A stretch of DNA of 64,000 nt from an uncultured Planctomycetia bacterium (lineage in GTDB: Bacteria > Omnitrophota > Gorgyraeia > 2-02-FULL-51-18 > JAGOUK01). The DNA is taken from positions 110,390 to 174,389 of the forward strand of contig CAYSFB010000005.1 of NCBI GenBank assembly GCA_964430735.1, read 5' to 3'. Shown here piece by piece: positions 34,301 through 64,000 of this stretch (position 1 is the stretch's first letter; each line of letters opens with the position of its first letter). The notes under the pieces were generated by a model. It worked only from the letters and a program-made list of their open reading frames with translations, was not told the DNA's origin and ran no database searches. The position numbers were made by a program, and so were the translations under genes.

Positions 34301-37300
34301 GCGGCATCTCTCGCACGGACCCGACTTCTTTTTGAGGGCCCTCCGATCGGCATGGATCCGGAGGAAGCCGCCGTCCGTGCCGGCCGGATCGACCGGATGT
34401 TGTTCGAAGCCGCCAAGAACCGGCGCAGTAAATTTGACAACAGCCCGCTCGGCACCGATTTGAGTCAACGCTCGACGCATTGGAACGATTACCGGGTCTC
34501 AATAGACCGCTTCTTTGGATATGTATCTGATCGCGATCAGGAGGAGAAGAGCGCATCCGGTGCGCGTCTGGCGGACGGCGGGAATAACGCTGGACGCGCG
34601 GGAGATTTAGCCAGGGCTTCCGACCCTTTGAGGGAATTGGAGAAGTTCGAAGAGATCTCCCTTCGGATTTACGATTCAGGGCTTGACGTCAATTCAAAGT
34701 CCATTCAGTCCGAGGAAGAGCTCAAGATTTGGGGCGACTTGCACAGAGCACAGTCCGAAGCGCTTCGCTGGATATTGCTTGATATTGAAAAAAATCCGAT
34801 CGGCCATGATGGAGAATTACTGCGATCAGCGATTATACGCGCCAAGGACCTCAACGGTAACATCACCCGACTTTTGGGACGTACCGCATGGCGAAAATTC
34901 TCCGTCTCCGACTCTATTCAGCTGGCGGCTGTCAAAGCATTGAATCAGACTTTTGAGCAGAATAAATTAAATATCGAAAGCCTCGCCTATTATTTGAGCG
35001 CGCAGGTGTATGACCCAAAAAGCGTTCAGCCGGAATGGATTCGTGAGCTGGAACAGTCGCTTTTGGTTTATCAGTTGAACCATCTTTTATTTTATCTGAC
35101 GGAATATATCCAGGAAGACGAGGAATCCATCCGGGGTGAGAAGCTGATGCTTCTCAGGTCCATTTTGAATTGGGTCGGCGGATCCACTGTGATGCGGCAG
35201 TATCTCAGCGCAGATATGCCGGACGGGCAAGATGAGGATATCCAGCGTCTGCAAGACCTCCTCGCTAAGGCCCGGGCCGCAGTTGACGCTTCAGGCGCGC
35301 GGCTGATGGAAACATATGCTGCGGCATTGGCGCGTTTGAATGCCGGAACTCCGGACGTCGCGACTTCCAAAAATACCGGGATGGATATGTCTTCCAAGTT
35401 CAGACATCCGCAGCTGATCGGCGAGTTGAAGCGGCTCAGAGATGAATGGGAAAAGAAGCCCGTGCTTTTTCCTCGTGAAGTGGTTGTCATCGGTCCCGGA
35501 TCGAGTTATCCGTCCGTTCAAAACGCGGATAAGCAATCCTATCAAATGGTCGAAGCGGCAGTCGGATTAGGGTTGGGCAACAGCGGCATCCGTTTTACGG
35601 TCCTCGACGAATTGGAAAGGGTGCTGGATGTTGTTGACCAAGCCCGGCATCCCGCTCTGATTTATGAGATCGAACCCTTCGACTTGAAAAAGATCACTGA
35701 CCCCGAATCGGATGCGCGTTCCGCGTATACCGTTTTTGCCTCAGAATTAGAAGAGTACCGGCAGCCGACGTCCTCCGGCGGCGAACGCTACGTCATTCCG
35801 TTCGACAGGTTTTCACCCCACCCCATCGAGAGGTTCCGCGGTCACGTCGAAAAGCTGGAGTATCCGGAAGCGTCGGCGGACCTGATCGTGGCGACGCACG
35901 TTTTTCAGTGGGCGTTCGAGTCCGACAAGACGATGGTCAATCGGTTCGATCTCATGGCCAAAGTGATCAGGTCGCTGCGTCGGGGAGGGGAGCTGATCAT
36001 CGACCAGGCCACATTCAGTTATGTGCAGGACGACGCCCGGCGGCGTCACTTCGAACGCGAAATGTCCAACCGGGACCTCTCTGTCGACGTCCGCCCGAGC
36101 GGGAACCTGGTGGTGATCCGCCGCATCGGCGCGCGCCTGGCGGCGAAGAGCAGCTTTTTGGCGAAAAGGATCCTGGGCCAGTATCGAGGCTTGGATGCCA
36201 GGATACGACGGCTTCAGAACGCCTACCCGAACGGCTATCGCGGATCGATAGACCAGGACGCGAGAGGGGAGCAGGTTCGCGAAAAATTCATCAGACTGAT
36301 CCGGGTCGGCCGCAGCGTCCGTCAGAACCTGGAGATCATGGGCTTTTCAGACATTGCCGGTGAACTTCATGCGAGGGTCAGGAGGCTTATCGAAGCGATT
36401 CAGAACAGCGAAGACGGGGTGTTACCGGCTCAAATGCAGCAGATGAAGATGATGCTTGCTTTGGAACATGGAGATCTCGATGCCTTCCAGTCCGATCTGG
36501 AGGGGTATCTGACGGGTAAGAACGTGCCGGTTTTCCGTGATTTGAACGCAGATGACCGCCGTCTTCAGATCGAATTCATGATTCGACAGGCGGGCGATCA
36601 CTTGTCGGTTTGGGGAAGCGCTTCCGAAAAAATTCTGGCGGAGCTCACGTCCCGGGCAGTTGCCGCGCATGACCATCGATCGATTCGTTCGATCTCTCGG
36701 GCGAGAAAATACTTGAAGGGCTGGATCAAGGCCGCCAGTGAAAAACCGCTGACGTATCCGGAGCGATTTAGGATACCCAAAGGGTACTCCGACTGGAGCA
36801 GGGCATACCCCGCCTATCAACCGCCTTATTATGTGGCGCTCGAAGTTCTGAGAAGCATTTATGGCGCGAGCCCGAACGGATATGCGGATCCGGAGGATTT
36901 GTCGCAGCTCCAGGGTAAATTCGCCAGCTACGAGGGGCCGGTGCGCTTCGAGACTTTGAACGGCAAGCAGTATCCCCTGAATCCCCGGGGAAGGCATGGA
37001 ATTCGCGGTCGGGGGCTTTTGGGCCGCTGGGGAGCCAATTTTGCAGCGGATCCTTTGGTCACCCGCATCAACCCAACAACGAATCGGCTGGAGTTCTTGG
37101 CGGTTCAGCGTGAGGACACGGGCCAGTGGTCGATTCCCGGAAGATTGATGGCACGTGATGAAGATATCCCAACCGCATTAAAAAATGCCATTCAGCGCAA
37201 AACGGGATTGGCGCTGAGTTTTGAGGGTGCTGAAGAAATTTATCGGGGTTACGTCGAGAACCCCAGAAATACCGATCACGCCTGGATTGAGACGGTGGCG

Positions 37301-46300: not shown

Positions 46301-49300
46301 GAGGCCAAGTATCTGGCGCTCGCGATGCGTTCATTTTCCCGTCCGATGAGCGATGGAAAAAAAGGAAGACTGTCCCGCCATGAACTTTTGCGCCGGGTGA
46401 TGAGCAAGGGACTCCTTCACCGGCATACCGACAGCCGCCCCGTTTCTATTTTTGAGCCCGCCCCGCCGGTCCACACCGAGATCCGCGTGTTCCGTCTCTC
46501 GAATCTGGCGCCCGACAGCGGGGAGCTCGATCCGGTTTACCGGGAAGTTCTTTTCGGGGCCCGCCGCCTGGCCGCCGCCGCTTCCAGCCATCTCAAGAAG
46601 GAATCCGGCCGGCCCGTCACGGACATCGAGGACCGGCTGGCCCGCCGCTGGGAAGATTACCGGAACGAAATCACCGGACTGTATGCGGATGAGCGTTATG
46701 GTTCCGCGGCGCTCCTTCAAGCCGACTGGTACGAGGCCACCGGCGACATCGATGACCCGCGTCTGGTCCAGGAGCTCGGCATGATCCGGGCAACCGACGC
46801 TGCCGGTGAATTCCTGGCCGCACACGACGGCCTCCGCGACGAGCTGAAGGGCCGGTTATTCGAAGTTTTTGTCCGTCATGCCGGCCTCATTGACGCCGAT
46901 CTGTCCGGCGCGCGGCTGGCCGGGGTTGAACAGACTGTGAAGCATGTGGACGAGATCTTTTTCAGGAGCCTGTCGGACGAGGACTTGCCGGCCGCTTCGG
47001 AGAACGTGAAAAAGTTTTTTGTCGATCGGTTCAAAGACCTCCTGGAATCCTTGGAAACGCTCAAGAATCCCTTGCAGGCGTTCAAGGACCTTGCGCGCGC
47101 CGCGCGGCGAGAAGGCGGGATCTTCATGCTCTATGCCATCGGGATCGAGCTCATCGAGGACGTCGTGATTCCCGGTATCCTGGTGTATGCGGGGCAGCCG
47201 CAATGGGTTCCATTCTTTTTGGCGTTTCACAGCGAGCCGTTCATGTACCCGCTGTATTTTTATTTGCGGCGCAGGCTGAAGTCGACGCTCAAGCCCGATG
47301 AGTTCAACCGGTACTTTGAAAACGTTCGCGGCGACATGCTCAAAGCGACAACCCTGGAAGAAAAATGGAAAACCGGCCAGGAAGCCGCCCGCCGCGTGCG
47401 GCTCGGGGACGTGGTTCAGTATTTTGTCCAGGTTCTGGAGCGCGACACGCGTGAGGAGCTTGCGTCGGAATCGGATCTTGTCACGGAGCGAGAAGTCGCG
47501 ATCAAGGCTTTGGGGCGTCTTTTGGCACCGCCGGAAGCGCAAAAAACGGTGACGGCCGAAGTCTATCAGAAGGCCCTCGTTCAGCTGATGCTGCACGCGG
47601 ACTCCTCCAACCCCTGGCTGCGGAAAACGGCGCTCGGGGCGCTGGCCAAGATCAAGGACCCGCGCGGGTTGGCGCCGGTGCTCGCGGCGCTCGGCGATCC
47701 GAACCCGATCGTCAAATCCACCGCCGCCAGGGCGATCGGGCAATTCCGCTCCTCCGTTCCCGGTTCGGCCGTGAGCAGTTTGATCCAGACGGCGCTCGAC
47801 TCCCGAGAAAATATTTATGTCCGCGTGTACGCGATCCTCTCACTCGGCCGCATCGGCGAAAGCCTCGGGTCCGCCGCTCCGTCCAAACTGACGCCCGCGT
47901 TGATCCGGATCGCCGGTTTTGAGGATCCGGCCCTGCAAAGCGCTTCCATCGAATCGTTGGCGCGGTTGAGGAGCGGGGACCCGGCCGTGTGGGAATTTTT
48001 AAAAAACAAGGCGCTTCGAAACACCAAGAACTTTAATGCCGGCGAACTCGCGTTGTGGGGCCTCACGCGGACTGTCGCGGCCGGGTTGAGGACGGGGAAT
48101 GCGGATCCCCGCGAGCGGGAGCTCATGGCGCTTTTGAACCTGGCGCAAAAAGGGCCGGACGAAAAGCGCGCCCTGTTCGCGAATCAGGCGCTGACTCAAA
48201 TCTTCGGAATCCCGAATAAGACCGCCAAGCCGGCCGTAAAAAAACCCGCTCGTCGTCCGGCCAAAACCGGGCAAGTCCAGTTGGTGGCGGTCGAATCGCA
48301 GCCGTCGGTCAGGTCGACCCAGCGGAATCTGCAAACGGATCTGAATCGCCGAAAAGTTTCTCATTACGTGATGCGGGCGGATGATTTTTATTATCGGAGA
48401 AGCGACGCGCCGATTCTTGAATCCGGTCAGGTCGATTCCCGGAACCGGTTGAACGGAGCGCTCTTACTCAGGATCGTCCGCCGCAATCAGGAAGGCCGGC
48501 CCTTCCGCTATCCTTTTTACGATCCCTTCCGCGGCAAGGCCTACCTGCACCTGACCCGCTCCCCCAAAAACAGATTGATCCTGGTCGGCACCCGCGAAGA
48601 AATCGCCGCGATCGGCGAGTACCTAACAAAGGAACACGTCGATTTTACGACCCGTTCCAACCCGGGTCCCGAATCTCCCGAGCCCGCCGGCGCGCGGATG
48701 GCGGAAGTTCAGCCGGAAAAAAATCCAAACGCATCTTTCCAAAGAATGGTGACTGTGATCAGGGATGGCGGCATTCACCTTCATCCCTCCCTGGAGATTG
48801 CGTCGATTGCACGAGCTTATCAAGGCACCGAAATACGCCTGCATGACGGCAGGCAATCGGTGAATGCAAAAGAAATGTCCGAAATAGGTTTGTTGGCAGC
48901 CGGTCAAGGAGCGATGCTTACCGTGTCCGCTGTGGGCCCTCGCGCCGAAGAAGCCGTCGATGAAATTGCCGGGCTATCTTATTTTGCGCCAACAAAAGCC
49001 GCGCGGCTGGCGGAGGATGGGCGGACATCGCCGGATGCTTATTCCAACGATCTTCTCAAATGGTCTGCTTCGCTTGTCGAAGCCATGCCGCGCGGGTGGT
49101 TCGCCGGCATCTGGCGGCGGGATCCGTTGGAAAAGGCGGCGCAGGAAATGGCTGAGACAATCCTTTTTAAGATCGCAGCGGAAGAGCGCTCCGGTTATCT
49201 GGACGCGTTAAGGCGTTTTGCGCAGACCGCCCGCATCGGACCCGAAACGCTGATCGTGGACATGCGGCAGGAAGTGTTGCTGCGTGCCTGGAACCGTATT

Positions 49301-52300
49301 TTGAGCATGGACGCGGCGTTCACCAGAAGGGAATTTTTGGCAACTTTAGCCGCGGCGTCGGTTCAGACGGCCGTTTCGAGGTATGTTCCGATCCGTGAGG
49401 TTTTGTCCGGCCTTTCAGCCTCCTCAATAAAGGGCGCGAGCGTGGACGTTGCGTTGAGGTTCTTGTGGCAGCCGTCGTTTTTTTCGGTGGCATTTGAGAG
49501 GTACGAGGAAAACAGGGCGGCTCAGAAGCGTATGTTCGGAGCATCGAGCGTAGTAGGCTCGGATCTCCACGTGGAGTTCGTCTCTCCCATTCGTGCCATC
49601 CACGAACGGGTTCATGGTTCCGGAGACTTCAGGCCCATCAAGCCTGGGGATGCTTACGACGACACGCTCATCGGCGAACCCTATCTCGCGTCGCCCTTCG
49701 AAGAATATCCTCTGTGGGCCCGGAAAGAGATGGTCCTCGTCGCCAGACGATTCGCGGATAACTTCAATGCAACGGAAAGTTTCATGCGTTCGCTCGACGA
49801 AGATGTGCAGGCGCGGTTAGCAGATCTGGATCCATTGTCCCCGGAAGCGTCTCGCTTGCGGGCTTTGGTCTTGGAGCAGATGGATGCTCCGATCAACGTG
49901 CGAAAAGCCATGATCCGGGAGATCGGTGAGGAGCGCCGGGCCATCCAAAGCCGGCTGCAGCTCGCCGAGAACCCGGCGGATGCCGCGATGTCTTATGCGG
50001 AATCATCGAACAACGAATTCGCCTACGATCTTTTTCCCGAGCCGGACAAGGGCCCAAGCCCGCTTCAAATGGCTTACGACCTGTCCGGCCTTGAACTTCG
50101 CCTGATGCAGCAGATTGTTCAGTTCAGCGGGTCTGCGTTCGGACCGTCCGGCGCGCGGATGGCTTCGGACGCTCAGGCAGACCAGCCGGGACAGCCGGAC
50201 TCGGACGCGGACATTATCCGGAAATACGGCTGGAAAACCATCACGGACGACCCTCTAGCGACGGAACTTCTGCCGCGCGCACAGGCGCAAGCTGCCGTGG
50301 AAGAGATCCGGTCCTACTTCGAGGCCGAAGCGCCCGACTACGACCGCAAGAACTTTGACCGGCTGGATCTGGACGCGGCGCTGCAGTCGTCCGTACTTTT
50401 GAACGGCAACCGCCGGCTTCAGATCGTCCTTGTTCCCTATCAGGAAGACCCGGATGCCAAGCCGTGGAACCGGGTGAAGGACGGCATGTCGTTGTTCCGG
50501 ATCGACGGGGATCTCGTGGCGCACGGGTTCTACACGCACCGCATTGCCAAGAACGAGACTTTTCCCGCGTTCGGGATGCATCCTTCGGCGGCGCGCTTCC
50601 ACGCGTCCGAACAGATCTACAAGGCCTATCTCAAGACCCTGTACGGGATGTTCCGTCCGGACTTCTTCGGCGTTCAGGCCTCGCAGATCTGGAACCGCCA
50701 GCCGGGCACCAACCCCGACCGCACCATTTTCTATATCAAACGCGGCTTTTTGCTCCCGAACTCGGACGATCCGGGTCTGCAGGCCTTTGCGGACGGGATC
50801 TACGTGCGGTTGAAGGAAGACGACTGGCTCTCCCGCGAGGAAAAACTGGAGGTGTACGACCGGCTCCTCAACGGCCTGGAAGCCGAAGAGGGGAACGCGA
50901 TCTGGTATTCGACGCCCCTGGCGCCGGAGTCCGCCGGCGCGCGGCTGGCGGGTCGGGAGCGGATGCACGAACTGAAGCGGCGGGCGGACTTTAACAATCT
51001 GCGTGTCGGTGACCGCATTGAACTGCCCAAGGCGACCGCGTCGGTTCTCTGGGTAAAAAAAATCGGCAAGGGACATGCCGTGCTCGGGATCCAAAACGGA
51101 TCGGCGGAACGCGAAATCCAGATTGACCAACCCTTCAAATCCGGTTCCTCGATCACGTTCAAGCATGTCTCCGCGGGTGTTTTTGTCGGAGCGGTCGAGG
51201 TCGACGCAGATCGGTCTCAACCCCGTCTCGATCTGCGCGTGCTCACGCCCAAGGTCTTGCCGGATGATCCTATGAAGCAAGTCCCCACCAATGACGGTTC
51301 CGGCGCGCGGCTGGCCGAAGGCAGGCGGAAGCGCAGCGAATCTTCGGCGGCCAGGACTCGCCGTGAGAGGATGATCGCCCGGATGAACGAGACGCCTCCG
51401 GACGGTCATCATTGGAAAATCTCGGAGTTGGCGCAGTCGTTAGGGGTCAGTATCCACACCCTGCATAACGATCTGAGGGCTCGGAACCTCCGTTATTCCG
51501 ATAGAATCCAGAAACACTCTCTCAAAAGGCCCTCCAAGAAAGAGATTGTTTTGAGGCGGGAGCGCGTCGCCGCCAAGTTTTTTCAAGCCACTCTGGATAA
51601 CCCTTGGACGGTTCAGTCGCTTGCCACAGAGCTGGGGCTCGCTAAAAAAACCGTTTATGACGACTTGGATTCCATGGATCTTCTGGGGTCTGATCTCTTG
51701 CAGTTGGAAGACCGCGCGCCGGTCGTCGAGGCTCGTGCGCGCCGACTGCGCTTGACCGTTCTGCTGAATCAAAATCCTCCTCATGGCGACCGCTGGACAG
51801 TGGCTCAATTATCCAAAGCTTTGAACGTCAAACAGGGGATTGTTTACTACGATCTTCAGTATCTGGGGCTTCTGGATTCCGACATGATTGAACTGAGAAA
51901 AAAGCCATCCCAGGAATATCTGAATGCCCGCCGGCAGCGGCTTCGCAATTTGCTTCAGTTGAACCCTCCGGATCGCGATCGCTGGACTACCAATGAATTG
52001 GCGCGAGTGCTGAACATGCCCCGGTTCATTGTGTACAGCGATTTGGCGGCCATGAACCTGCTCGATTCTGACAGGCTGGATATCGAAAGATATCAAAATC
52101 CATTTTCTCGGGAAGAGATCGAGCAACGGCGTCTGCAGATCGCGGTCACCCTTTTGTCCGTGGCGCCTTCCGGGAGGAAGCGCTGGACCGTGGGAATGCT
52201 GGCGGAGTATCTGAATCTGTCGTATGACCTGATATACCACGGCCTGATGGAGGCCGGTCTTTTAAAGTCCAAAAAATTGAGTCTTCGAAAAATCAGACGG

Positions 52301-55300
52301 CCCCATGCCCCAGTCGAAAAATCTCTGAGGAGTCTGGCTGCGTTTGAGATGAGCGCGGATCCGGTGGAATCGCTTCCTGATGATCAGGCCCAGTTGATCG
52401 ATCTGGCGCGCAGCAGGCTGGATGACGCTGAGTACGAGATTTTTCTGCGCGATTATTTTTCGCAAGACGACGAGAGCATCGAACAGGCCGCTGCGGCCAG
52501 CCATCTGACGACCGAGGAACTCGTTCTTAAACGGAGCGAGATTCTTTTTAAGCTGTCGCGCGACGGCGCGCGGCTGGCGAGCGAACGCCAACTGACACTG
52601 GATCGTCTTCGGAACGTTGGCCGACGTTTAGAGCGTCTCGCGGAAGCCCTCGGATTTGGGAAAGACCACCCCGAGATCCAGCGCTTTGAAGACGAAATGG
52701 ATCGCTTGAGGCAGGCGGGTGACAAGGACGCTTACCGAAGGCGAGCCCGGGAGCTGTACGACGAAATCAGTTCGCGGCACACCCCGACATTCCGGACAGC
52801 TCAGAACTTCGTTTTTTACTCCAAGTTCATCCGCGGGCTTGAGATGCGGCTTCTGTTGCGGGAAACCGGCAATCCCGGATCGAGTTCCAAGTTTGAATGG
52901 CCGGAGGATGAAAAAACCCGAGCCCGCCATACCCTCCTGGCCGCGAAGCAGTTTGTCGGCAGGATAGCTTTTGCCATCAACTGGTGGGAGGACCAGCTGC
53001 GGAATTTGGACGCTTCGGGTCCACTGGAACCAATGCCGCAGAATATCGATTGGGATGCTGTCGAATTTATGGCCGTTCTCACGGCTCTCCAGTCAGCGGA
53101 TATAAAGCTCGCGGGCTTTTCAAAATCCATGGACCGGATCGATCGCACTCTCACGAATGTGTTGGAAGGGATTTATCAGGACGGGCCGGACATTGGCGGT
53201 GCCGGCGCGCGTCTGGCGCAGTCCAAGTTTGCGGTTGTAAAGGAGCGCCCCGAAGCCGCGGCGCTCAAGATGGCCGGGGCGCTGCGTGCAGCGATGGCGG
53301 CCAATACGGATTCGATAGAGTTCTTCTCATTGCGGGGCTGGATGGTTTTTCATCCGGATGGAACGGCTTCGGCGGTTTTTCAGCCAGTTCGCGACTCATC
53401 GGGTTATACGCCCGCCCACGAGCGTTTAAAGGAGGCCTTTGTCGAAGATTATGCGGATCAGGCGATATTGGAAGGTGCCTGGGTCAAGCTGGCGGTCATT
53501 TTTAGAGACGGCAAGTCGGCCGGAGTTTCGCTCATGGACTTCGATAAGGATAAAAAAGAAAGTTTTGTTCAGGCCAGCTTCCTGATGGAAGACCTGCTTC
53601 GGGCCGCGTTCGGCGATCAGGAGGCCCGTGAGGTGTACAGCTATGTGCCGATGGCAGAGTTTTTGGACGAGGAATATGAAAAAGTTCTGCGGCCGTTGGC
53701 GGACCAAAACGGCACATCGCGGTCAGCGCTTTCCATCATCAACCAAACGTTGAGGAAAGCCGCAAAAAACGTTCAATCTGAACCCGTTCCGGAATCGTCA
53801 AAAGGGGACAGGTCGGGTGCGCGGATGGCCAGCAAAGGTGTGGTGGACTTGAGTCAGGAATTCCGCCGGCTTAATACCAAGCTGGTGTCGGTCTTGAAGG
53901 CCGCCGAACCGGACTCGATCAAGCTCACCACCACGATGATGCATGCTTTTTTTGCAAGCGACACGATTCCTGTCCCGGGCGAGTATTCCGATAATCCGGC
54001 CGAGGATTATTCAGGCCGGCTTGCGATGAGCATCGTGTGGTTCAGAAAAGCTGCCGTGAGGAGGGGCAATCACAGTAAACGGATATTTCAGCCGGAAAAA
54101 GCGATCGGGGCTTTGAGTCAGATTCTCGAGGTTCTGTCCGAGACAAATATTCCGGATCGGATTCCGCGCAAGACCATTCTTACTGCGCGGACGGCGGTCA
54201 GCGATTTCATGGCCTTGATCGAACCCTCCCTGAACGAGCCGCAAAGGAGGGCGTCCGTTTCCGGTTTCGAAGGGCGAATCGGCGTGGAGGCGCAGCTCCA
54301 GTATTGGTATGACCAGCCCGGCGATTTTGTGGGCGATGAGATTGATATCACGGGCTATCTCGGATCCAAAAGCCGCAAAGAAGCCAAGATCCATTGGAAC
54401 TTTTTGCTTCCGAACGGCCAACCGTTGAAGCGGAGGGTCGCCATGGGAATCGGAGGCGGGGCCGGGATTTTGAAGTACACCGTCCAGCCGATGAGAGAGG
54501 TCGGAGCGCTTAATCTGGTATTCCGTGGTTATCGGGGGTCGGAGTCGCGCCAAGAGGCAAGGTCGGGACTGTTCCGCTGGGATGCGGCTGCTCAGACAAT
54601 CCGGCACACGCGCGAACTCATGGACGAATGGCTTGCCGGTCAGTACAAACGGACGGGTGATTTTAAAAGCGAAGAGAAGCCCATCAACCGGTATATCGGC
54701 CAATCCTCCGTCGACATGGCGACGGTGAGCAAGGGCTTTTTGCTTCCCAACGGGCGGACGTGGGGGCATCAAGACCCTATGCGGTTGGGGCTTCGCGGGC
54801 TACCGCTCTATACCGTGCAGGTCCAAGGCGTTGCCGGACAACTGCAGATCGTCTTTCGCGGTTATCGTGATCCGCATGGAAGGCGGCCCGTCGCAACCGC
54901 GGTCTGGGATTGGGTTTCGGAAAAGGGGAAATTTGTGGAGACGCACGACCGTTGGCTTTCCAGACAGTACGCGAGGAGCGGGGTGTTTTCAACCGAGGAC
55001 TTTGTGATCAATGATTATCTGGGCTTGTCCGGTGTTCGATCGGGCGTGCTGAATAAGGCTTTTCTCCTGCCGAACGGCAAAACGCTGGGCTATCACCCGA
55101 ACCTGCGGTTGAACCGTAAATCGGAACGGTTCGACCGATTCACGGTGCGCGTGCAGAGAAGCTTCGATTCGGGTCCTTTGGAGCTGGTTTTTAAGGGCTG
55201 GAAGCTGGATGCGATCGGATGGAATTCGACCGCGCAGTCAGAATGGGTTTGGAATCCCGAGACCGAAAAACTTGTTTTCCGGTCCAGGTCGGAAGGTGCC

Positions 55301-56023
55301 CGGCTGGCGGTAGATACGGGTCGGAATCGCATCGCGGCCGAATCTGATTTGTGGCTTGAGCAATTGTCGGATTTGTTGGCACTTTTTGAACTCTCGAGTT
55401 GGGAGATCGACGCGCGCGCCGAGGGGATCGCACGGCCGGAGAACGCGGAAGATTTGACGCTTCTTTTGCTGAAAAGCGCGGCGGCTTCGTTCGAGGAAAC
55501 GGGTAAAACGGTCTTGGTCCGCGTCGGTGAGGGCGTGCTGGACGCGGGGGCCAAACAAGACGAACTCATGGGGATGTTAAAAAAGCTTTCTGAGCACGCA
55601 GTGAAATACGGGATTTATTTTGATTGGAGCCGGGTGATGGGATTTGCCGGCGAAGTTCCTTCCGCGCCGGAAGGAAGCGAAGAAGTGAGGATCGTGACGG
55701 ACGCGGCCCAGCTGGCAGCCGGCCAGACAGGGCTCGTTTCGGCGGAGAATCCGGATATTTCGGGTCTGGGGCTCTTTGCCGCGCTCCTGGCCCGGACTCC
55801 GAAGAACGCACTCGACGCTTTTATGACGCAGCACGCGAGCGCGCTCAAAACGTTCTACGAATCCGAGCTGTCGGTCGAGACGCTGGCGGACTTCAAGGAC
55901 GTGCCTGCGGACCCCGGCCGGCGCATTCAACTCAACTTCCACAAGGCTGTTCCGCTTTTGCGCGTGATAGAACTTTTTCAACGGCTCCAGACCGCCGCCC
56001 GCCTGGCATCCATTTCCGCCTGA
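20690..56023 (+). CDS. giant 11,777-aa multi-module protein or polyprotein; more than 30 unrelated domains delimited by a recurring [SA][GA]AR[LM]A hexapeptide
   Basis: A single ORF with no stop for 35,334 nt. All recognisable domains are read in this frame. N-terminal signal peptide/TM [20 protein letters not shown]. The motif occurs at all 34 module junctions (positions listed in the first finding) and in the last 10 residues ([10 protein letters not shown]-stop). Confidence 0.75.
   Translation: [11777 protein letters not shown]
23105..24070 (+). other. module 3 (322 aa): polytopic membrane module, 5-6 predicted TM helices
   Basis: Hydrophobic runs [79 protein letters not shown] and [13 protein letters not shown]. 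Confidence 0.6.
24623..25636 (+). other. module 5 (338 aa): histidine phosphatase (PGAM-branch) domain
   Basis: [13 protein letters not shown] is the RHG catalytic motif. IIASDLERA and [10 protein letters not shown] supply the second His. Confidence 0.6.
25790..26060 (+). other. CMP/dCMP(CDA)-type zinc deaminase motif region inside module 6 (25637..27289)
   Basis: [14 protein letters not shown] (HxE) and [12 protein letters not shown] (PCxxC) have the correct order and spacing. Confidence 0.55.
28187..29140 (+). other. module 8 (318 aa): class I SAM-dependent methyltransferase-like
   Basis: [25 protein letters not shown] and [13 protein letters not shown] (motifs I-III). It ends at the variant motif GARLS (29141). 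Confidence 0.45.
29141..29881 (+). other. module 9 (247 aa): sigma-70-family-like module (region 2 plus region 4 HTH)
   Basis: Region 2-like [41 protein letters not shown]. Region 4-like [28 protein letters not shown]. The size equals that of a free sigma factor. Confidence 0.5.
30368..30940 (+). other. module 11 (191 aa): ICMT/phospholipid-methyltransferase-family-like membrane methyltransferase
   Basis: [17 protein letters not shown] ... [25 protein letters not shown] (RHPxY plus the EE..L..FG..Y..Y pattern), with flanking TM helices. Confidence 0.5.
31673..33682 (+). other. module 13 (670 aa): type I phosphoribosyltransferase (ComF/GntX-like) followed by a beta-propeller-like domain
   Basis: PRTase PRPP motif [22 protein letters not shown] (nt ~32118-32165). 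Downstream are repeated Gly/Asp-rich beta strands ([39 protein letters not shown]...). Confidence 0.55.
33683..34198 (+). other. module 14 (172 aa): histidine-kinase-type HATPase_c (GHKL) domain with a possible H-box
   Basis: N-box [14 protein letters not shown], G1 IRDSGIGI and G2 [19 protein letters not shown]. The upstream [15 protein letters not shown] is a possible phospho-His site. Confidence 0.6.
35294..36127 (+). other. module 17 (278 aa): second methyltransferase-like Rossmann module
   Basis: [23 protein letters not shown] and [10 protein letters not shown]. Confidence 0.35.
36960..37320 (+). other. NUDT9-like Nudix ADP-ribose pyrophosphatase domain inside module 18 (36128..37480)
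   Basis: [30 protein letters not shown] ... [23 protein letters not shown] closely follows the NUDT9/NUDT9H pattern NPRGRTGLRGRG...GPNH.DP.VTRW...KGYMDDPRNTDNAWIETVAV. Confidence 0.7.
37481..38536 (+). other. module 19 (352 aa): GHKL-type ATPase region resembling an anti-sigma-factor Ser kinase
   Basis: [35 protein letters not shown]. The call is tentative. Confidence 0.3.
38537..39601 (+). other. module 20 (355 aa): ECF-type sigma-70 module (regions 2 and 4) plus an extra C-terminal HTH
   Basis: Region 2-like [21 protein letters not shown]. Region 4 [44 protein letters not shown] is a textbook ECF sigma-4 signature. Confidence 0.65.
47560..48000 (+). other. PBS-lyase-type HEAT repeats inside module 26 (46907..48688)
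   Basis: [46 protein letters not shown] ... [17 protein letters not shown] ... [19 protein letters not shown]. Confidence 0.6.
48689..48997 (+). other. module 27 (103 aa): HPr-like phosphocarrier domain
   Basis: [76 protein letters not shown] matches the HPr fold pattern (GLHARPA-like His, NAKS, LG..G). The module has exactly stand-alone HPr size. Confidence 0.6.
51302..52564 (+). other. module 31 (421 aa): five tandem ~50-aa HTH-like repeats followed by a sigma-70 region-4-like HTH
   Basis: Repeats of the form RR.R....L...PPxGxxWTxxxLAxxLxxxxxxVYxDLxxxxLLDSD (nt ~51350-52270). Then [43 protein letters not shown]. Confidence 0.5.
54320..55290 (+). repeat. three tandem ~110-aa protein repeats of unknown fold (FLLPNG...LxLVF[RK]GY motif) inside module 34
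   Basis: [12 protein letters not shown]...[12 protein letters not shown] / [12 protein letters not shown]...[13 protein letters not shown] / [12 protein letters not shown]...[11 protein letters not shown]. Confidence 0.55.
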
Positions 56024-56076: not shown

Positions 56077-56922
56077 ATGGCAATGGTCAAAGGTAAAATC
56101 AGAATCGGCCACAGTCCTGACGCGGATGACGCGTTCATGTTCTACGGCATTGCGTGCGGAGGGGTCGATACATCGGGCCTCACGATCTCGCACGTCGTCG
56201 AAGAGATCCAGGCTTTAAACGAGCGCGCCTTCCGCGGCGAACTCGAAGTCACCGCCATTTCCGCCTACACCTATTTTGAAGTCGCCGACAAGTACACCCT
56301 CATGTCCTGCGGCGCGTCCATCGGCGACAACTACGGTCCCGTCGTCGTGTCCAAGAAGCTCAATTACCCCAAAGAGATCAAAGGCAAGCGCATCGCCGTC
56401 CCGGGCAAGTACACGACGGCCTATCTCATGCTCAAGCTGTATGAGCCAGACGTCGAAGCGGTGTTCGTGCCGTTCGACCAGGTGCTGCCGACCCTGGACA
56501 AAGGTCTGGCCGACGCGGCGCTCGTGATCCACGAGGGACAGATCACCTTCAAGGACCAGGGGTACACCAAGGTCCTCGACCTCGGCGAATGGTATTACGA
56601 GAACACCAAGCTCCCGCTGCCGCTGGGCGTCGACGTCGTCCGGACCAATCTCGGCAAAGACCTCATGCGCAAGTGCCAGCGCGTTTTCCGCGATTCCATC
56701 ATTTACGCGCTCGAGCACCGCGAAGAAGCGGTCGAATACGCGATGAAGTACGCCCGCACGACGCCCCGGGACACGATCGACCGCTTCATCGGCATGTACG
56801 TGAACGAACTCACGGTGAACATGGGCAGGCGCGGGAAGGACGGCCTCATCCACCTGCACGAGTCGGCCAAGGCCTCCGGTCTCCTTAAGAACGAACACCC
56901 GATTCAATTTGTACCTTTCTAA
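56077..56922 (+). CDS. MqnA/MqnD-family menaquinone (futalosine pathway) biosynthesis protein
   Basis: N-terminal IRIGHSPDADDAFMFYGIACGGV matches the MqnA/MqnD signature (G.SPCPND.FiFyal). About 280 aa. MqnA and MqnD cannot be distinguished by eye. Confidence 0.5.
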   Translation: MAMVKGKIRIGHSPDADDAFMFYGIACGGVDTSGLTISHVVEEIQALNERAFRGELEVTAISAYTYFEVADKYTLMSCGASIGDNYGPVVVSKKLNYPKEIKGKRIAVPGKYTTAYLMLKLYEPDVEAVFVPFDQVLPTLDKGLADAALVIHEGQITFKDQGYTKVLDLGEWYYENTKLPLPLGVDVVRTNLGKDLMRKCQRVFRDSIIYALEHREEAVEYAMKYARTTPRDTIDRFIGMYVNELTVNMGRRGKDGLIHLHESAKASGLLKNEHPIQFVPF

Positions 56923-56923
56923 G

Positions 56924-57598
56924 ATGGGCATCAGCACGATCCACCACTCCTCGATCGGAAAAAAAGCCGTGGTCTCTGTCACGGGTTTGCTGCTTTTGGG
57001 CTTCGTGGTTGGTCATCTGATCGGCAATCTCCAGATCTTCCTCGGACCGCACGCGCTGAACAGCTATGCCCAAAAGCTTCAATCCCTGGGCGAGCTGCTC
57101 TGGGTCCTGCGGATCGGCCTTTTGGCGATCTTCGTGACCCACATCGTTGCCGCGCTGTGGCTCGCCGCCCAAAACCGCGCCGCGCGCCCCGTCCGTTACG
57201 CCAAGTCGGCCGTCCGACAGACTTCCTACGCGTCGCGCCTCATGGTGGTCACCGGGATCATCATCCTGATGCACGTCATCTACCATCTGGCCCACTTTAC
57301 GCTGGGAACGGTTCACTCGCAGTACTACGGCCATGAGGACGAGCTCGGCCGTCACGACGTGTACTCGATGGTCGTCCTGAGCTTCCAGGATCCGAAGATC
57401 GCCTTCACTTATATAGCGGCCATGGCCGCTCTGGCCTTCCATCTGCGCCAGGCCGCGACCGCGTTCCCGCAGAGCTTGGGCTTGGTTCAGCCCTCGACCC
57501 TGGCCAAGTTCCGCGTCGGCGGACTCATCTTTTCGATTCTCATCTTTGTCGGTTATTCCTCGATCCCGGCCGCCGCGCTGCTCGGGATCCTCAAATAA
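56924..57598 (+). CDS. sdhC: succinate dehydrogenase/fumarate reductase cytochrome b subunit (5-TM, type B)
   Basis: ATG 56924 lies immediately after the upstream stop. Five hydrophobic helices with conserved His (GHLIGNL, THIVAAL, HVIYHLAHF). Sits upstream of sdhA and sdhB. Confidence 0.7.
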   Translation: MGISTIHHSSIGKKAVVSVTGLLLLGFVVGHLIGNLQIFLGPHALNSYAQKLQSLGELLWVLRIGLLAIFVTHIVAALWLAAQNRAARPVRYAKSAVRQTSYASRLMVVTGIIILMHVIYHLAHFTLGTVHSQYYGHEDELGRHDVYSMVVLSFQDPKIAFTYIAAMAALAFHLRQAATAFPQSLGLVQPSTLAKFRVGGLIFSILIFVGYSSIPAAALLGILK

Positions 57599-57623
57599 AT
57601 AGGGACACGTACTATTTAATTTT

Positions 57624-59546
<1,923 letters not shown>

Positions 59547-59547
59547 G

Positions 59548-60336
59548 ATGAGCGCTCAAACACTGAACCTCACGCTCAAAGTCTGGCGTCAAAAAGATTC
59601 CAAGTCCCAGGGCCGGCTCGCGACGTACAAGGTCAAAGACATCAGCACCGACATGTCCTTCCTCGAGATGCTCGACGTGCTCAACGAGCGCCTCATCCAG
59701 GAAAACGAAGAGCCCATCGCGTTCGACCACGATTGCCGCGAGGGGATTTGCGGCATGTGTTCGCTCGTGATCAACGGCCTTCCGCACGGACCCGAGGGCG
59801 GCACAACGACCTGCCAGCTCCATATGCGCAAGTTTAAGGACGGCGACACCATTTTCATCGAGCCGTGGCGCGCCAAGGCGTTCCCGGTGGTCAAAGACCT
59901 CGTCGTTGACCGCAGCGCCTTCGACAAGATCATCCAGGCCGGCGGCTTCGTCTCGGTGAACACCGGTCAGGCCCAGGACGCCAACAACCTTCCCGTGGGC
60001 AAAGAAACGGCCGACCTCGCGATGGATGCCGCCCAATGCATCGGCTGCGGCGCCTGCGTCGCCGCGTGCAAGAACGCGTCGGCCATGCTCTTTGTCTCGG
60101 CCAAGGTGAGCCAGCTGGCGCTCTTGCCCCAGGGTCAGCCCGAGCGCGAGCGGCGCGTCCTCAACATGGTGAAGACCATGGACGAAGCCGGCTTCGGCAA
60201 CTGCTCCAACCAATTCGAGTGCGAAGCGTCCTGCCCCAAGGAGATCAGCGTCGGATTCATCTCCAAGATGAATGCCGAATACCTCCGCGCCGCTGTCAAA
60301 GCCGAGGCCCGCGTTTCCCAGCAATCCTCCGATTAA
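59548..60336 (+). CDS. sdhB: succinate dehydrogenase/fumarate reductase iron-sulfur subunit
   Basis: [10 protein letters not shown] (2Fe-2S), [11 protein letters not shown] and CPKEI (4Fe-4S/3Fe-4S). ATG 59548 lies 1 nt after the sdhA stop. The track ORF from 59305 is an in-frame upstream extension overlapping sdhA and is rejected. Confidence 0.9.
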
Positions 60337-60342
60337 GGCCGT

Positions 60343-61122
60343 ATGAAGCAGTATCACGACCTTCTCCGGCACATCCTCGCCCAGGGCCAGACCAAGTCTG
60401 ACCGCACCGGCACCGGCACGATCAGCGCCTTCGGTTATCAGATGCGCTTTGATCTCGCGCAAGGCTTCCCGGCCGTCACGACCAAGAAGATCCACCTCAA
60501 GTCCATCATCCATGAGCTCCTCTGGTTCCTTAAAGGGGACACGAACATCAAGTACCTGAAGGACAACGGCGTTTCGATCTGGGATGAGTGGGCGGACAAG
60601 GACGGCAATCTCGGACCGATTTATTCCAAACAATGGCGCGACTTCGGCGGCGTCGACCAGATCCGCGACGTAGTCGAGGAAATCAAGCGCAATCCCGATT
60701 CCCGACGGCTCATCGTCAGCGCTTGGAACCCTTCAGAAGTAAAAAACATGGCGCTTCCGCCGTGCCACACGATCTTCCAGTTTTATGTGCAGAACGGAAA
60801 AGTTTCGTGCCAGCTGTACCAGCGCAGCGCGGACGCTTTTCTCGGCGTGCCGTTCAATATCGCTTCCTACGCGCTCCTGACTCACATGGTTGCGCAAGTG
60901 ACGGGGCTCAAGCCCGGCGACTTCGTCCATACCTTCGGTGATCTGCATATCTATCTGAACCACATGGAGCAGGTGAAGGAGCAGCTCTCGCGCGACTTCC
61001 GGCCGCTGCCGACGCTCAAGCTCAACCCGGCCGTCAAAGACATCTTCGGCTTCAAGTACGAAGACATCGAGATCCTCAACTACGATCCCCACCCGGCCAT
61101 CAAGGCGCCCGTCGCCGTCTAG
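60343..61122 (+). CDS. thyA: thymidylate synthase
   Basis: [40 protein letters not shown] and [12 protein letters not shown] match. Confidence 0.95.
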
Positions 61123-61134
61123 AGCCGAGCCCCG

Positions 61135-61641
61135 GTGCCCAAGCTTTTTCACATCGTCGGAATGGCTGAGAACCGGGTGATCGGCAAAGACAACCGGTTG
61201 CCGTGGAGCTTCCCGGCGGACCTGAAGAACTTCAAGCGGATTACCATGGGTCAGACGCTCCTCATGGGGCGAAAGACCTATGACAGCATCGGCAGGCCCC
61301 TGCCGGGCCGGGCGAACTTCGTTCTCACCCGGTCCAATGTCACCACCTGCCAGCAGGACGTGGTGCACCGCGAACTTCCCGCAGGAACTGAGCTGCGCTT
61401 TTTTAATTCTGTAAATTCAGCACTCGAAGCCGCAAAGACCCAGAATGTCTTCGTTATGGGAGGCGCAGACCTTTACGCCCAAACCCTGAACCAGGTCGAT
61501 GGAATCTATCTGACGCGGATTCCCGGCATCTACGAAGGCGATGCCTTTTATCCCCTTATCCCGAGTGATCTCATCCTCCGAGAAACCCAAAAACTCCCCG
61601 ACGACGACCGGCTTGACCTGCTGACTTACATCAGAAAATAA
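61135..61641 (+). CDS. folA: dihydrofolate reductase
   Basis: GTG 61135. IVGMAENRVIGKDNRLPW, LMGRKTYDSIG and MGGADLY match. This is the conserved thyA-folA pair. Confidence 0.85.
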   Translation: MPKLFHIVGMAENRVIGKDNRLPWSFPADLKNFKRITMGQTLLMGRKTYDSIGRPLPGRANFVLTRSNVTTCQQDVVHRELPAGTELRFFNSVNSALEAAKTQNVFVMGGADLYAQTLNQVDGIYLTRIPGIYEGDAFYPLIPSDLILRETQKLPDDDRLDLLTYIRK

Positions 61642-61728
61642 TTAGTACAACCCTTTAAAAAGATGCGAATTTGAGGCATAATTGAGATACGAGTGTGTTT
61701 TCTGTTCAGAAGTAATGTAACTAATTTT

Positions 61729-64000
61729 ATGTATTTAAGAAACCAAAGTAAAACATTATCGATTAATTGGCTTAAAATCATAAGCCTTGCAGTCGCATCT
61801 TCGGTTCTGATGCAAGACATCCTCTTGGCGGCGCCCGAAGGATCCGCGCTCCAGCTGCTCACCCCCAAAAAAAATATTGCGATGGATCGGCCGCTCGAGG
61901 ATATGGAATGGGCGCGCCGATGGCTGCCGGATTTTGACTCCTCTCAGGTCCGGTTGGATGACGCATACCGCTCGGCGCCCGGCAGCCGGACCGTTGTCCT
62001 CTTGCAGGATCCCCATACAAACGAATCGGGTCAGCTGCGTCTTGCGGGCATGCTTGATTTGCTGGTTCGTCAAAAATCAGTCAAGTTCGTCTACACCGAG
62101 GGCGGATCAGGGGATCAGTCGATCGGGTTTTTAAAGTCTGCGGCGGATGGCGTCGCTCGGGAGCGGGTCGCCGCCTCCTGGCTCCGCCGCGGGCGGCTGC
62201 AAGCGGCCGAATATCTGCAACTCACGTCTGATGTCGATTTTGCTCTTTGGGGTGTCGAAGATCCGGATGCGTATGGTCGCTCGCTTGCGCTCTATCGACG
62301 GGCGGTCCGGGAGCGCCGCCGTTCTGAAACGTACGTGGCACGCATTGAGCTGACGCTCGACGCCGTGATGAGCCGGACACTCAGTTCTGTCGCCGCTGCA
62401 TGGGCGCAAATCCTGGACGCGCGCGACCGGGGGGAGAAGCCGGTCGGCGATCATCTTCGCATGCTGTTGGATGAGGCCCGGCGGCGCGGAATGAGTCTTG
62501 AAGATTTTCCTGCTCTTCTGGATCTTGAGGGGCTTTTGGATGCGGAGCGTTCGATTGATCCCGAGAAGGTCCTTGGACGCGATCCCGAGGCGATCGCCCG
62601 ATACGAGAAGCATCTCGAGGCTCTCAAGGGCCTGGATGCGCGGCCGGCGCTGGAAGAAATAAACCGGCTGGAGCGCCGCATCGAGGATCGTGTCGTGACC
62701 GGCCCGGCCGAAAAAGGATGGTTCAAAGCGCGGCGCGCAACCGCCTTTTACCGCCGGCTTCTGCGTCTGGAACTCACGCCGCAGGATTATTATGAATTCA
62801 TGTCCGCGCCTCAGGAGTTCGACCTCCGTCGCGTCACCGGATATCTCAACCGGAGGGTGATGGAGATCGGCGGCATGAGCGGACGATTTGTTTTTTTGGA
62901 TGCACGTTTCTGGATGGGGGCTTCCAGATGCTTTGATTTTTACCGCCTGACCTATGACCGCGACAGGCACTATGTCCGCCAGCTTTTGAGTCTGGCGCCT
63001 TCGACGGGTGATGCGGCCGCCCCCGGCCCGCCGGTGGCTTTGATCGCCGGCGGATATCATGCGCCCAGTCTCAAGGCGCTTCTGCGCGATGCCGGGTTTT
63101 CCTATATCAGCATGATTCCGGCGTCGGCCCATGAGACCGATCGCGCCCGATACGAACGATTGCTCACCGGGCAGACCGCTGCCGGGTCGAGTAAAGGGTC
63201 CGATGCCCGCGCAGATACGATCATGATGGTGCAGGTGCGGTCGCGTAATCGGGGTGGCGATGCGGAGCTTCTGGAAATAGCCGGCGCTCTGGGTCCGCAA
63301 GCGGCCCGGCTCGCGCAGAGGGTGCTAGAGATGGATCGGGCGGTCGGCAGCCGCTTGGCCGCAGGGGAGGATGCCGACGCCTCCGAAGACCGGATTCTCA
63401 CGGCTTTGGCGGAATTGCAGTCCAAAATGGCCGATATCGGCGACAGCCCCGATCTTGCGGAACCATCGATCGCGGAAGCCGTTCGATCCCTTGTCCGGGC
63501 TGCGGAAGAGCTTATCCCTCGCCTGGAGCAGACCCCCTCACTCAACGGCTACCGTCCCTGGGTTGAGGAGGTGCGCGATTCTTACGCGCAGGCGCTTCGC
63601 TGGCAGGAGCTTACGGACGAGGAGTCCCGGCGGGAGCGGATCGAGGAGATCGCCACTACGGCTCCGCGGGATTTGGAACAAGCCGAAAGAGAGCTCGAGG
63701 CCCTTGTGTTGCGCATTCAGGCGCAGGCGGATGAGTTGGAGTCCTCGCTGCCCGAGGCGGCCCAATCGCGCCGGCTCGTGGTCGCGACGCTCAACAATTT
63801 CTTGAAAAACCTGCGGGATTATCGCAAAGATCTTTTTGTCCCTTCGCCCGGCTACGAAACAACCTTGCCGCGCACTTCTAAATCACTCATCCAATTTGCA
63901 TATCAGGTGGGTCGCAACGGAGTCATACCCGTACGCATCGCGCCGGATGGAAAAAATATTGCAACCTCGGAGCAGCGCGGCGATGTCAAAATATTTCCTC
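61729..64000 (+). CDS. 3'-truncated CDS (at least 757 aa, open to the window edge): second member of the giant-protein family, with the same N-terminal module and its own ARLA junction motif
   Basis: ATG 61729 sits in an AT-rich island. I translated by hand with no stop through 63999. Signal/TM WLKIISLAVASSVLM. VLLQDPHTNESGQ...VYTEGG...LIAGGYHAPSL parallels module 1 of the giant gene. QAARLAQ lies at 63298..63318 and GSRLAAGED downstream. The gene is absent from the ORF track because it has no stop in the window. Confidence 0.7.
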   Translation, partial: MYLRNQSKTLSINWLKIISLAVASSVLMQDILLAAPEGSALQLLTPKKNIAMDRPLEDMEWARRWLPDFDSSQVRLDDAYRSAPGSRTVVLLQDPHTNESGQLRLAGMLDLLVRQKSVKFVYTEGGSGDQSIGFLKSAADGVARERVAASWLRRGRLQAAEYLQLTSDVDFALWGVEDPDAYGRSLALYRRAVRERRRSETYVARIELTLDAVMSRTLSSVAAAWAQILDARDRGEKPVGDHLRMLLDEARRRGMSLEDFPALLDLEGLLDAERSIDPEKVLGRDPEAIARYEKHLEALKGLDARPALEEINRLERRIEDRVVTGPAEKGWFKARRATAFYRRLLRLELTPQDYYEFMSAPQEFDLRRVTGYLNRRVMEIGGMSGRFVFLDARFWMGASRCFDFYRLTYDRDRHYVRQLLSLAPSTGDAAAPGPPVALIAGGYHAPSLKALLRDAGFSYISMIPASAHETDRARYERLLTGQTAAGSSKGSDARADTIMMVQVRSRNRGGDAELLEIAGALGPQAARLAQRVLEMDRAVGSRLAAGEDADASEDRILTALAELQSKMADIGDSPDLAEPSIAEAVRSLVRAAEELIPRLEQTPSLNGYRPWVEEVRDSYAQALRWQELTDEESRRERIEEIATTAPRDLEQAERELEALVLRIQAQADELESSLPEAAQSRRLVVATLNNFLKNLRDYRKDLFVPSPGYETTLPRTSKSLIQFAYQVGRNGVIPVRIAPDGKNIATSEQRGDVKIFP

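Follow-up and report, generated by a model that had tools for sequence, protein, structure and literature searches.

The stretch of DNA analysed here, which we call the window (64,000 nucleotides of contig CAYSFB010000005.1), raises the question of whether it carries one odd giant gene or two members of a gene family, and of what becomes of the very long chains that such genes encode. Two open reading frames (ORFs) are at issue: one of 11,777 amino acids (aa), here called the giant gene, and one that begins at 61729 and runs off the end of the window, here called the second gene. We found that the second gene is near certainly a bona fide member of the family to which the giant gene belongs, and that this family has a four-part layout: a Sec-type signal, a ~450-aa domain of the TIKI/ChaN/EreA fold (the N-domain), a series of unrelated modules bounded by a short junction motif, and a last module ending in ...[S/A]-A. 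On sequence grounds we lean towards reading the family genes as polyprotein-like 'beads-on-a-string', whose chains would be broken at the junctions.

The second gene extends far beyond the window

The initial annotation had described an ORF from 61729 that was missing from the list of ORFs and that opened with the signal segment and N-terminal domain of the giant gene. Translation revealed 757 codons open to 63999 without a stop, indicating that the ORF was left out of the list for no other reason than that it runs off the window. Its frame opens at 61675 and has two candidate starts, GTG at 61693 and ATG at 61729. Exact-peptide scans of GTDB genomes and JGI metagenomes did not turn up the source contig. 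The sequence was extended with two contigs retrieved via the window's ThyA, L081 and L082, which are Logan assemblies of SRR14271373 and SRR14271366, respectively. L081 and the window are identical (0 mismatches) across 6,407 nt, from 57594 to 64000, and L081 goes on for another 4,964 nt past the window (to the equivalent coordinate 68964); L082 is identical to L081 throughout their overlap. The ThyA contigs and a FolA contig of 2.2 kb, three independent assemblies, agree base for base. The extension shows no early stop beyond 64000: the reading frame stays open through all the added sequence of L081, for a total of at least 2,412 codons, and it carries a further junction, S-G-A-R-L-A, at aa 2161-2166. 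The expectation of a second giant gene thus held for a very long chain with a further junction; 'giant' in the sense of >5,000 aa is unproven at a length of at least 2,412 aa, and the junctions are sparser than in the giant gene (3 in 2,412 aa versus 35 in 11,777 aa). L081 (at 11371) and L082 (at 11055) end at the same base, before any stop, in a Glu/Arg/Gln-rich, coiled-coil-like stretch; the common end point suggests that short-read assembly broke off there at a repeat or at sequence that a paralogue also has.

These data leave next to no room for the idea that the ORF is an ordinary-sized secreted ChaN/TraB-like protein stopping past the window, or an artefact of assembly or gene calling. 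Such an idea can draw on the window itself, in which only 757 aa are seen and the two junction-like motifs are not significant alone. The window-identical contigs come from independent runs, and their open codons together with the junction at aa 2161-2166 rule out a protein of ordinary size that stops just past the window.

BLASTP of the second ORF against the first 1,200 aa of the giant ORF gave 25% identity over 465 aa (E=2e-22), and tblastn of the N-domain against the whole window found two copies only, one in each gene. A hydrophobic segment at aa 10-28 is present in both; in the second gene it is followed by MQDILLAAPE, and columns L22 and A34 are conserved in the family alignment. Common to both N-domains are the motifs DPH.N..GQ, EGG, GGYH and TDR..YERLL. 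By identity the two lie apart: the N-domain of the second gene belongs to the main clade (28-34% identity, E down to 5e-88), whereas the giant gene falls in a smaller clade with the proteins P0001-P0005, and the two are therefore old paralogues. Their sequences thus place them as distant paralogues of different subfamilies.

The assignment of the second gene to the family draws on the parts of the layout that its known sequence covers. It has the first two parts of the layout, two junctions after the N-domain and a perfect junction in the extension, and it carries the signal stretch Q(D/E)x(A/L)(F/W/L)A(A/N)P, the N-domain motifs and the family's distance to the first junction. What lies between its second and third junctions is a module of ~1,620 aa with a membrane-like segment. 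In aa 541-2412 we found no Pfam domain, and no homologue among the modules of the giant gene, the 150 family representatives analysed below or the 79 related loci. A word-indexed protein search with this module was also empty; the same index returned blanks for the 757-aa fragment and for an alignment of 12 N-domains, and it missed the whole N-domain family, indicating a limitation of the index for these Ala/Leu/Arg-rich proteins and not absence. Being junction-poor and domain-dark, the second gene may function more as a single large protein than its neighbour does.

The N-domain defines a large family

An exhaustive HMMER search with a profile of the two N-domains, counting one representative per 50%-identity cluster, returned 8,060 representative proteins, 6,579 of them at E<=1e-10 and 2,031 at E<=1e-30. 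The proteins range from 476 to 7,894 aa, most being 1,000-8,000 aa long; the N-domain occupies residues ~1-530 and is N-terminal in nearly all of the 150 matches listed. To describe the layout, 12 full sequences were read and 150 representatives analysed, all of which open with a signal sequence followed by the N-domain. Behind it we recognised by eye, with no domain search, modules resembling phosphoglucomutase, aldolase, adenylate kinase, RelA/SpoT, GNAT, kinase, HEAT and SNF2 proteins. At the other end, 111 of the 150 representatives terminate in [S/A/T][A/V/T], mostly SA or AA, often just past an ARLA or ARMA.

Among the species representatives of GTDB, 244 loci encode relatives. Of the 79 loci listed, most come from metagenome-assembled genomes with the label Omnitrophota; many others bear the label 'uncultured Planctomycetia', and for a few it is Eisenbacteria or Auribacterota. 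The labels other than Omnitrophota (L002, L004-L010 and others) may be imprecise record titles, or the family may reach beyond Omnitrophota. Single genomes account for at least 3-9 of the 79 listed loci, and several pairs stand in tandem on one contig, indicating that two nearby members are the norm in this lineage and not special to the window. None of eight family members that we looked up has a name in any source, and a look-up of P0002 returned no entry. Neither Pfam nor NCBIfam has a model for the N-domain, and neither N-terminus has a significant match there or among PDB sequences.

The N-domain is a putative hydrolase

We modelled aa 1-500 of the second gene with AlphaFold2 (AF2), using 12 aligned sequences (predicted local distance difference test score 81, predicted template modelling score 0.71). 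The model has an alpha/beta fold with a parallel beta-sheet core, which is split by a ~250-aa helical insertion; downstream of residue 484, a region that contains AARLA, it is disordered or of low confidence. In the family alignment 31 columns are invariant, among them D94, H96, E124, E177, G441, G442, H444 and E476, and all are present in the second gene, as is the whole family signature DxH.N..Q, E(G/A)G, WGVE, RD, GG(Y/F)H and YE.(L/I)L. In the model D94-x-H96, E124, E177, G441-G-Y-H444 and E476 are located at the ends of beta-strands. Active enzymes of the TIKI family have a 2His/2Glu site, and one of them, RRSP, is a sequence-specific endopeptidase in which His3902 and Glu3930 are 28 residues apart (PMC6254334). 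The N-domain has the same spacing from His96 to Glu124; D94, H96, E124 and H444 are all invariant. Given the position of the invariant residues at strand ends and the RRSP-like spacing, the N-domain is probably an active hydrolase.

The assignment to the superfamily comes with a set of differences. None of the curated models (PF04187, PF01963, PF05139 or related) reached its threshold: the window proteins gave no match, and below threshold PF04187 (ChaN) matched 1 of 12 family members at E=0.015 and DUF5694 matched 3 of 12 at E=0.029. Unlike the TIKI/TraB/PrgY/ChaN/erythromycin-esterase proteins, the N-domain has Asp instead of Glu as its first acid, contains the long helical insertion, and always forms the first module of a long modular protein.

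A short motif marks the module boundaries

The motif that recurs along the giant gene has the general form (S)-G-A-R-(L/M)-(A/S/T) and is embedded in hydrophilic linkers, with hydrophobic residues depleted over ~5 residues on either side. AR[LM]A occurs 35 times in the giant gene against 1.4 expected from shuffled sequences, and GAR[LM]A 27 times against 0.1; only seven residues separate the final copy from the C-terminus. Across the window as a whole, the five remaining frames contain 0-1 copies, and the genes outside the family hold none. The motif is general in the family: GARLA (346 occurrences) is the commonest 5-mer in the 150 family proteins, ahead of the N-domain signatures, which occur once per protein, and AARLA and GSRLA are found 97 and 44 times.

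In the second gene the two motifs within the window, AARLA (P=0.16) and GSRLA (P=0.075), are not significant by shuffling when taken alone; they gain meaning because the family context predicts their position. In 115 representatives the first junction follows YE.LL at a median distance of 68 aa (interquartile range 48-90), and 78% have it within 100 aa. The corresponding distances are 46 and 61 aa in the second gene and 27 and 60 aa in the giant gene. The initial annotation had put the first motif at about aa 526 in the second gene, in agreement with AARLA at aa 525-529, and at 567 in the giant gene; there we found ARMA at 569 and, ahead of it, G-S-R-L-S at 535. The further junction of the second gene, the only one found in 1,870 further residues, reads TCC GGT GCG CGG CTG GCG, which is the junction consensus of the giant gene except for GGT in place of GGC.

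Junctions are the boundaries of modules. In the giant gene, all Pfam domains that were detected sit between a pair of junctions: His_Phos_1, dCMP deaminase, phosphoribosyltransferase, HATPase_c, methyltransferase, sigma-70 region 4, HEAT, HPr and HTH. The HPr domain, at 9351-9428, fills a 103-aa module at 9338-9440, and the HATPase_c domain stops six residues short of a junction.

Modules behave as exchangeable units and possibly as pre-proteins

The HPr-like module, number 27 of the giant gene (window 48701-49009, 103 aa), shares 99% identity with residues 5148-5250 of P0005, a protein from NCBI that is encoded on a 293-kb contig. Both ends of the alignment fall exactly at junctions, and the N-domains of the two proteins are only 51% identical. 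The fraction of G or C at third codon positions (GC3) of module 27 is 0.50, the lowest in the giant gene, compared with ~0.69 elsewhere. Modules 32 and 33 show the same cassette pattern against P0003, and the cassettes are 78-99% identical. Together, these data suggest that module 27 was transferred recently as a cassette, with the junctions as its seams.

To characterize the beginnings of modules we scanned 452,929 residues of the family for signals of the twin-arginine translocation (Tat) type, that is, a twin arginine followed by a hydrophobic stretch. Of the 37 signals found, 14 begin 0-20 aa past a junction, a region that makes up 4.0% of the sequence (binomial p=7.5e-11). Some are textbook S/T-R-R-x-F-L-K signals, such as SGARLA-RNRRSFLKQSFAAVAAAAL, and canonical signals stand 3-7 residues past junctions in P0007, P0043, P0104, P0116, P0123, P0133 and P0141. 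A Tat signal works from the N-terminus of a protein that has folded in the cytoplasm. The placement of these signals is the strongest, if indirect, evidence that the chain may be broken at or near the junctions, and since Tat export takes folded cytoplasmic proteins, the break should occur in the cytoplasm. Membrane-like segments were examined in the same way as possible N-termini of modules and dismissed, the enrichment past junctions being weak (p=0.04).

Junctions carry a synonymous-codon bias

The constraint on the junctions extends to synonymous codons. In the giant gene, whose junction consensus is TCC GGC GCG CGG CTG/ATG GCG, GGC encodes 20 of 27 Gly residues, GCG 82% of Ala (background 42%) and CGG 79% of Arg (background 33%). 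The codon for Leu or Met is ATG, CTG or TTG in 31 of 33 junctions, and CTC is never used although it makes up 23% of Leu codons. The GC3 excess is limited to codons -1 to +4 of the junction. GC-biased gene conversion was rejected on this ground, the excess stopping short of the flanks. A bias in the same direction was found at 247 junctions in 79 other loci (L002-L080), where all synonymous codons occur. In family genes of middle GC content ~39% of the junction Leu/Met codons are not NTG, and in low-GC genes the Ala codons shift to GCC or GCT while the peptide is kept; the Leu of AARLA in the second gene is encoded by CTC. Past the junctions Met shows no enrichment. As a family-wide feature, internal start codons at junctions were therefore rejected, and internal initiation is unlikely as a general mechanism. 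A seam for recombination, or an element acting at the level of RNA or of the ribosome, might lie behind the codon bias.

The chains may be broken at the junctions

If the chains are broken, a gene of this family would be a cellular polyprotein, an 'operon without stop codons'. A single AT-rich promoter and initiation region would start one long translation, and an endopeptidase that cuts within G-A-R-L/M-A would most likely be what breaks the chain at the junctions. Each released module would be a pre-protein in its own right, with or without a targeting signal: module 1 would carry the Sec signal, some modules Tat signals and others membrane segments. TIKI-fold enzymes include site-specific endopeptidases, making the N-domain a candidate for the processing hydrolase; this role is uncertain because the domain is predicted to be exported, and an alternative role for it might be to hold the nascent chain at the membrane. 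The junctions would double as seams for module swaps between paralogues.

Several observations weigh against this reading. The Tat evidence places processing inside the cytoplasmic membrane, but the predicted location of the N-domain is outside it, and a cytoplasmic break argues against the exported N-domain as the cutting enzyme. A protease site should be indifferent to synonymous codons, and yet the junctions show a codon bias. Some family members lack the canonical motif and have GTRL or GSR[VA] variants instead. The junctions of the second gene are sparse and its module 2 is long and domain-less. The break itself is inferred from sequence. The sparse junctions and the membrane-like segments of the second gene are equally what one would expect if the junctions stayed unbroken and each gene encoded a single, very long scaffold of many domains at the membrane (a 'metabolon' of the surface or envelope, or a prey-contact protein) in which G-A-R-L/M-A served as a linker or as a docking motif for a chaperone or secretion factor. 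Published Omnitrophota giants are likewise read as single membrane-anchored or secreted multi-domain proteins (10.64898/2026.06.07.730766; 10.1101/2025.01.14.632903). Tat signals immediately past junctions are hard to explain in an intact chain, as are modules of cytoplasmic type (HPr, sigma-70 region 4, HTH, phosphoribosyltransferase, deaminase) behind an N-terminal export signal and modules the size of whole proteins that are bounded exactly by junctions. We regard an uncut scaffold as a possible but rather unlikely outcome.

The remaining explanations start from the nucleotide sequence. The junction could be mainly an element of ~15 nt (GGC GCG CGG YTG GCG) that acts as a microhomology or recombination seam, with the peptide as a by-product, an explanation that is compatible with cleavage. 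It would account for a bias confined to the codons of the motif, both in the giant gene and in the other loci, for cassettes of 78-99% identity that end exactly at junctions in proteins whose N-domains share only 51%, and for the aberrant GC3 of module 27. All synonymous codons occur at every position of the motif, however, and conservation is far stronger in the peptide than in the nucleotides: low-GC genes change their Ala codons and retain the peptide. A pure DNA signal would need neither a fixed frame nor hydrophilic flanks, and we consider it improbable that the element is mainly one of nucleotides. That the modules are made separately during translation, by internal initiation at the ATG, CTG or TTG of the junction or by a 2A-like ribosomal 'skip' that depends on both peptide and codons, is very improbable. 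The near-exclusive use of these three codons in the giant gene, with CTC absent, the restriction of the bias to the junction, the resemblance of L/M-A to a natural N-terminus and the Tat signals at natural distances would all fit such a mechanism; the non-NTG codons of mid-GC genes and the CTC of the second gene's AARLA would not, nor would the lack of Met enrichment. In addition, the GC-rich context of the junctions has no Shine-Dalgarno-like sequence, and there are no stop codons that could release upstream ribosomes. No 2A-like mechanism is known from bacteria. A more far-reaching reading, which we rate as a long shot, is that a large share of ordinary cellular proteins (metabolic enzymes, regulators, Tat-exported proteins) is made on giant chains in place of operons and that the junction is a ribosome- or RNA-level break, either a bacterial counterpart of the viral 2A 'stop-go' or one that depends on codons; a break of this kind would explain why the junctions are constrained in their synonymous codons besides their amino acids.

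AT-rich islands precede both genes

Both genes are preceded by islands that the initial annotation had described as having under 40% GC in DNA of ~63% GC. The islands are indeed below 40% (Table 1), and they are the most AT-rich gaps of the window, the other intergenic gaps having 43-55% GC; the surrounding value needs revision, the window as a whole having 59.5% GC. AT-richness extends into the second gene itself, whose codons 1-25 have 32% GC, as had been noted. Sigma-70-like hexamers exceed shuffle expectation in both islands. Around the second gene they include matches at 61613-61642 (10/12) and 61654-61682 (9/12), with 4 found versus 0.8 expected. In neither island did we find an Rfam family or a tRNA, and the two do not align to each other beyond their AT-richness; an RNA or DNA element shared by both was rejected on this basis.

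Low GC ahead of the gene is common in the family. For 62 related loci whose start is confidently placed, the 100 bp ahead of the gene average 36% GC versus 51% for the locus. This stretch is among the lowest 2% of 100-bp windows in 52% of the 62 loci, and in 48% of them GC reaches its minimum for the whole locus within 200 bp. The simplest reading would be that the island is the promoter and translation-initiation region for a very long transcript. Two further AT-rich patches (~37-41% GC) are present inside the giant ORF, at 34915-35131 and 40034-40113; they are located in modules 17 and 21, off the junctions.

Relation to known systems

Giant multi-enzyme ORFs of Omnitrophota are already on record, and we found no published description of the present layout. 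Three preprints deal with very long multi-enzyme ORFs of this phylum (10.64898/2026.06.07.730766; 10.1101/2023.11.21.568195; 10.1101/2025.01.14.632903), among them Nielsen & Lui 2026 with a 'multi-enzyme metabolic cluster' class (10.64898/2026.06.07.730766) and West-Roberts et al. 2023 with Archaeovorin/Dockerin-type giants (10.1101/2023.11.21.568195). The latter gives the cleavage points as unknown and points to C39/S8 peptidase domains (10.1101/2023.11.21.568195). The present genes resemble these giants in lineage, in very long ORFs with an N-terminal signal peptide and scattered membrane segments, in the presence of several per genome, and in a mosaic of unrelated Pfam domains (HATPase_c, methyltransferase, HEAT, phosphoglucomutase and others). 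They differ in lacking the C39/S8 peptidase domains and, for the most part, in size, the preprints focusing on at least 10,000 aa and most present members having 1,000-8,000 aa. Term searches of the texts revealed no shared TIKI-like N-domain, junction motif or C-terminal signature and no use of the word 'polyprotein'. Literature searches for the motif strings, and for 'polyprotein' together with Omnitrophota, returned nothing relevant.

Functionally, the nearest analogue is the MARTX toxin, in which unstructured linkers separate the modules and are cut behind a Leu that has small residues as neighbours (PMC2900308). As in MARTX, one very large ORF holds unrelated, exchangeable modules joined by linkers, and the TIKI fold matched by the N-domain is also that of RRSP, one of the MARTX effectors. 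Of the MARTX-type traits, modules, linkers and cassette exchange are seen in the present family, and cleavage after Leu is a candidate. The differences are as clear: by Pfam the giant gene, the second gene and its extension have no glycine-rich RTX repeats, which MARTX toxins carry at both ends, and no C80 cysteine protease, the N-terminal signal is of the Sec type and not for type I secretion, and the junction has Arg at P2 and accepts Met. In addition, the modules look like housekeeping, metabolic or regulatory proteins, some with Tat signals, and the family counts thousands of members with several per genome.

Viral polyproteins offer a further comparison, along with the 'polyvalent proteins' of phages and conjugative elements that Iyer et al. 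are said to have described in J Bacteriol in 2017. They too place many independent proteins in one ORF, with short conserved junctions and module shuffling. In contrast to them, the present genes are chromosomal and stand among mqnA, sdhCAB, thyA and folA, with no viral or mobile context in the window, and Pfam finds in them no embedded protease domain of viral type.

The second gene turns what seemed a single odd giant gene into a family, represented in one window by two distant paralogues of the same layout. For proteins suspected of being cut, the family offers the (S)GAR(L/M)A junctions as explicit candidates for the break points, together with in-silico evidence of modules as separate pre-proteins (Tat placement and cassette swaps) and a candidate hydrolase. 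If the chains are broken, this would be a cellular, chromosomal polyprotein strategy on a large scale in a bacterial phylum, and gene content, protein counts and metabolism would have to be inferred differently from such genomes.

Features of the window and neighbouring genes

The coordinates of the two genes and of the features discussed above are collected in Table 1.

Table 1. Features of the two family genes and their surroundings, in window coordinates.
Feature	Position	Strand	Basis
Giant paralogue, 11,777 aa, with signal sequence, N-domain and 35 junctions (~36 segments); ends ...AARLASISA	20690..56023	+	
Intervening housekeeping genes: mqnA-like, sdhC-like, sdhA, sdhB, thyA, folA	56077..61641	+	Pfam
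Second family gene, 5' part (757 codons)	61729..64000	+	Translation; L081/L082 extension to at least 2,412 codons
Signal peptide or signal anchor, aa 1-38	61729..61842	+	Basic residues; hydropathy; AF2 helix 5-34; conserved L22/A34
N-domain, aa ~61-486, TIKI/ChaN/EreA/TraB-like alpha/beta fold with ~250-aa helical insertion	61909..63186	+	
Putative catalytic Asp94-Pro-His96 (family consensus DAH)	62008..62016	+	Invariant in alignment; after beta-strand 88-93
Glu124, invariant acid, 28 residues past His96	62098..62100	+	Alignment
Gly441-Gly-Tyr-His444, second G-x-x-H motif	63049..63060	+	G441, G442 and H444 invariant; after beta-strand 436-440
Junction-like A-A-R-L-A, aa 525-529	63301..63315	+	AARLA is a common family 5-mer
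Junction G-S-R-L-A, aa 540-544	63346..63360	+	Giant gene has G-S-R-L-S equivalently at aa 535
Start of module 2, helical, without recognisable family	63361..64000	+	No Pfam match
AT-rich island, 31.0% GC, 87 bp, from folA stop to second gene	61642..61728	+	Promoter-like hexamers
AT-rich island, 37.0% GC, 135 bp, before giant paralogue; divergent from AsmA-like gene	20555..20689	.	GC count

Pfam analysis of the genes between the two paralogues identified VitK2_biosynth (MqnA-like), SdhA, SdhB, ThyA and FolA, corroborating the view that two loci of one family flank an mqn-sdhCAB-thyA-folA group; the cytochrome subunit of Sdh fell under the Pfam cut-off (E=1.6e-4, 22.2 bits versus 25.8). On the other side, immediately upstream of the giant gene, are located a SNF2-family helicase with a hint of a SWIM finger (14692-17997) and, on the minus strand at 18017-20554, an envelope protein resembling AsmA/YdbH/DUF748, which is divergent from the giant gene across the AT-rich island. 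Near the left end of the window, an inverted repeat of ~23 bp (AAAAATTACAGCTGGAGATTC ... GAATCTCCAGCTGTAATTTTTT) followed by T's lies at 1955-2030, in an AT-rich gap, and looks like the terminator of the upstream gene. The ORF that follows the gap (2084-7183) encodes a protein of 1,699 aa with GH2/GH72-like TIM-barrel matches.

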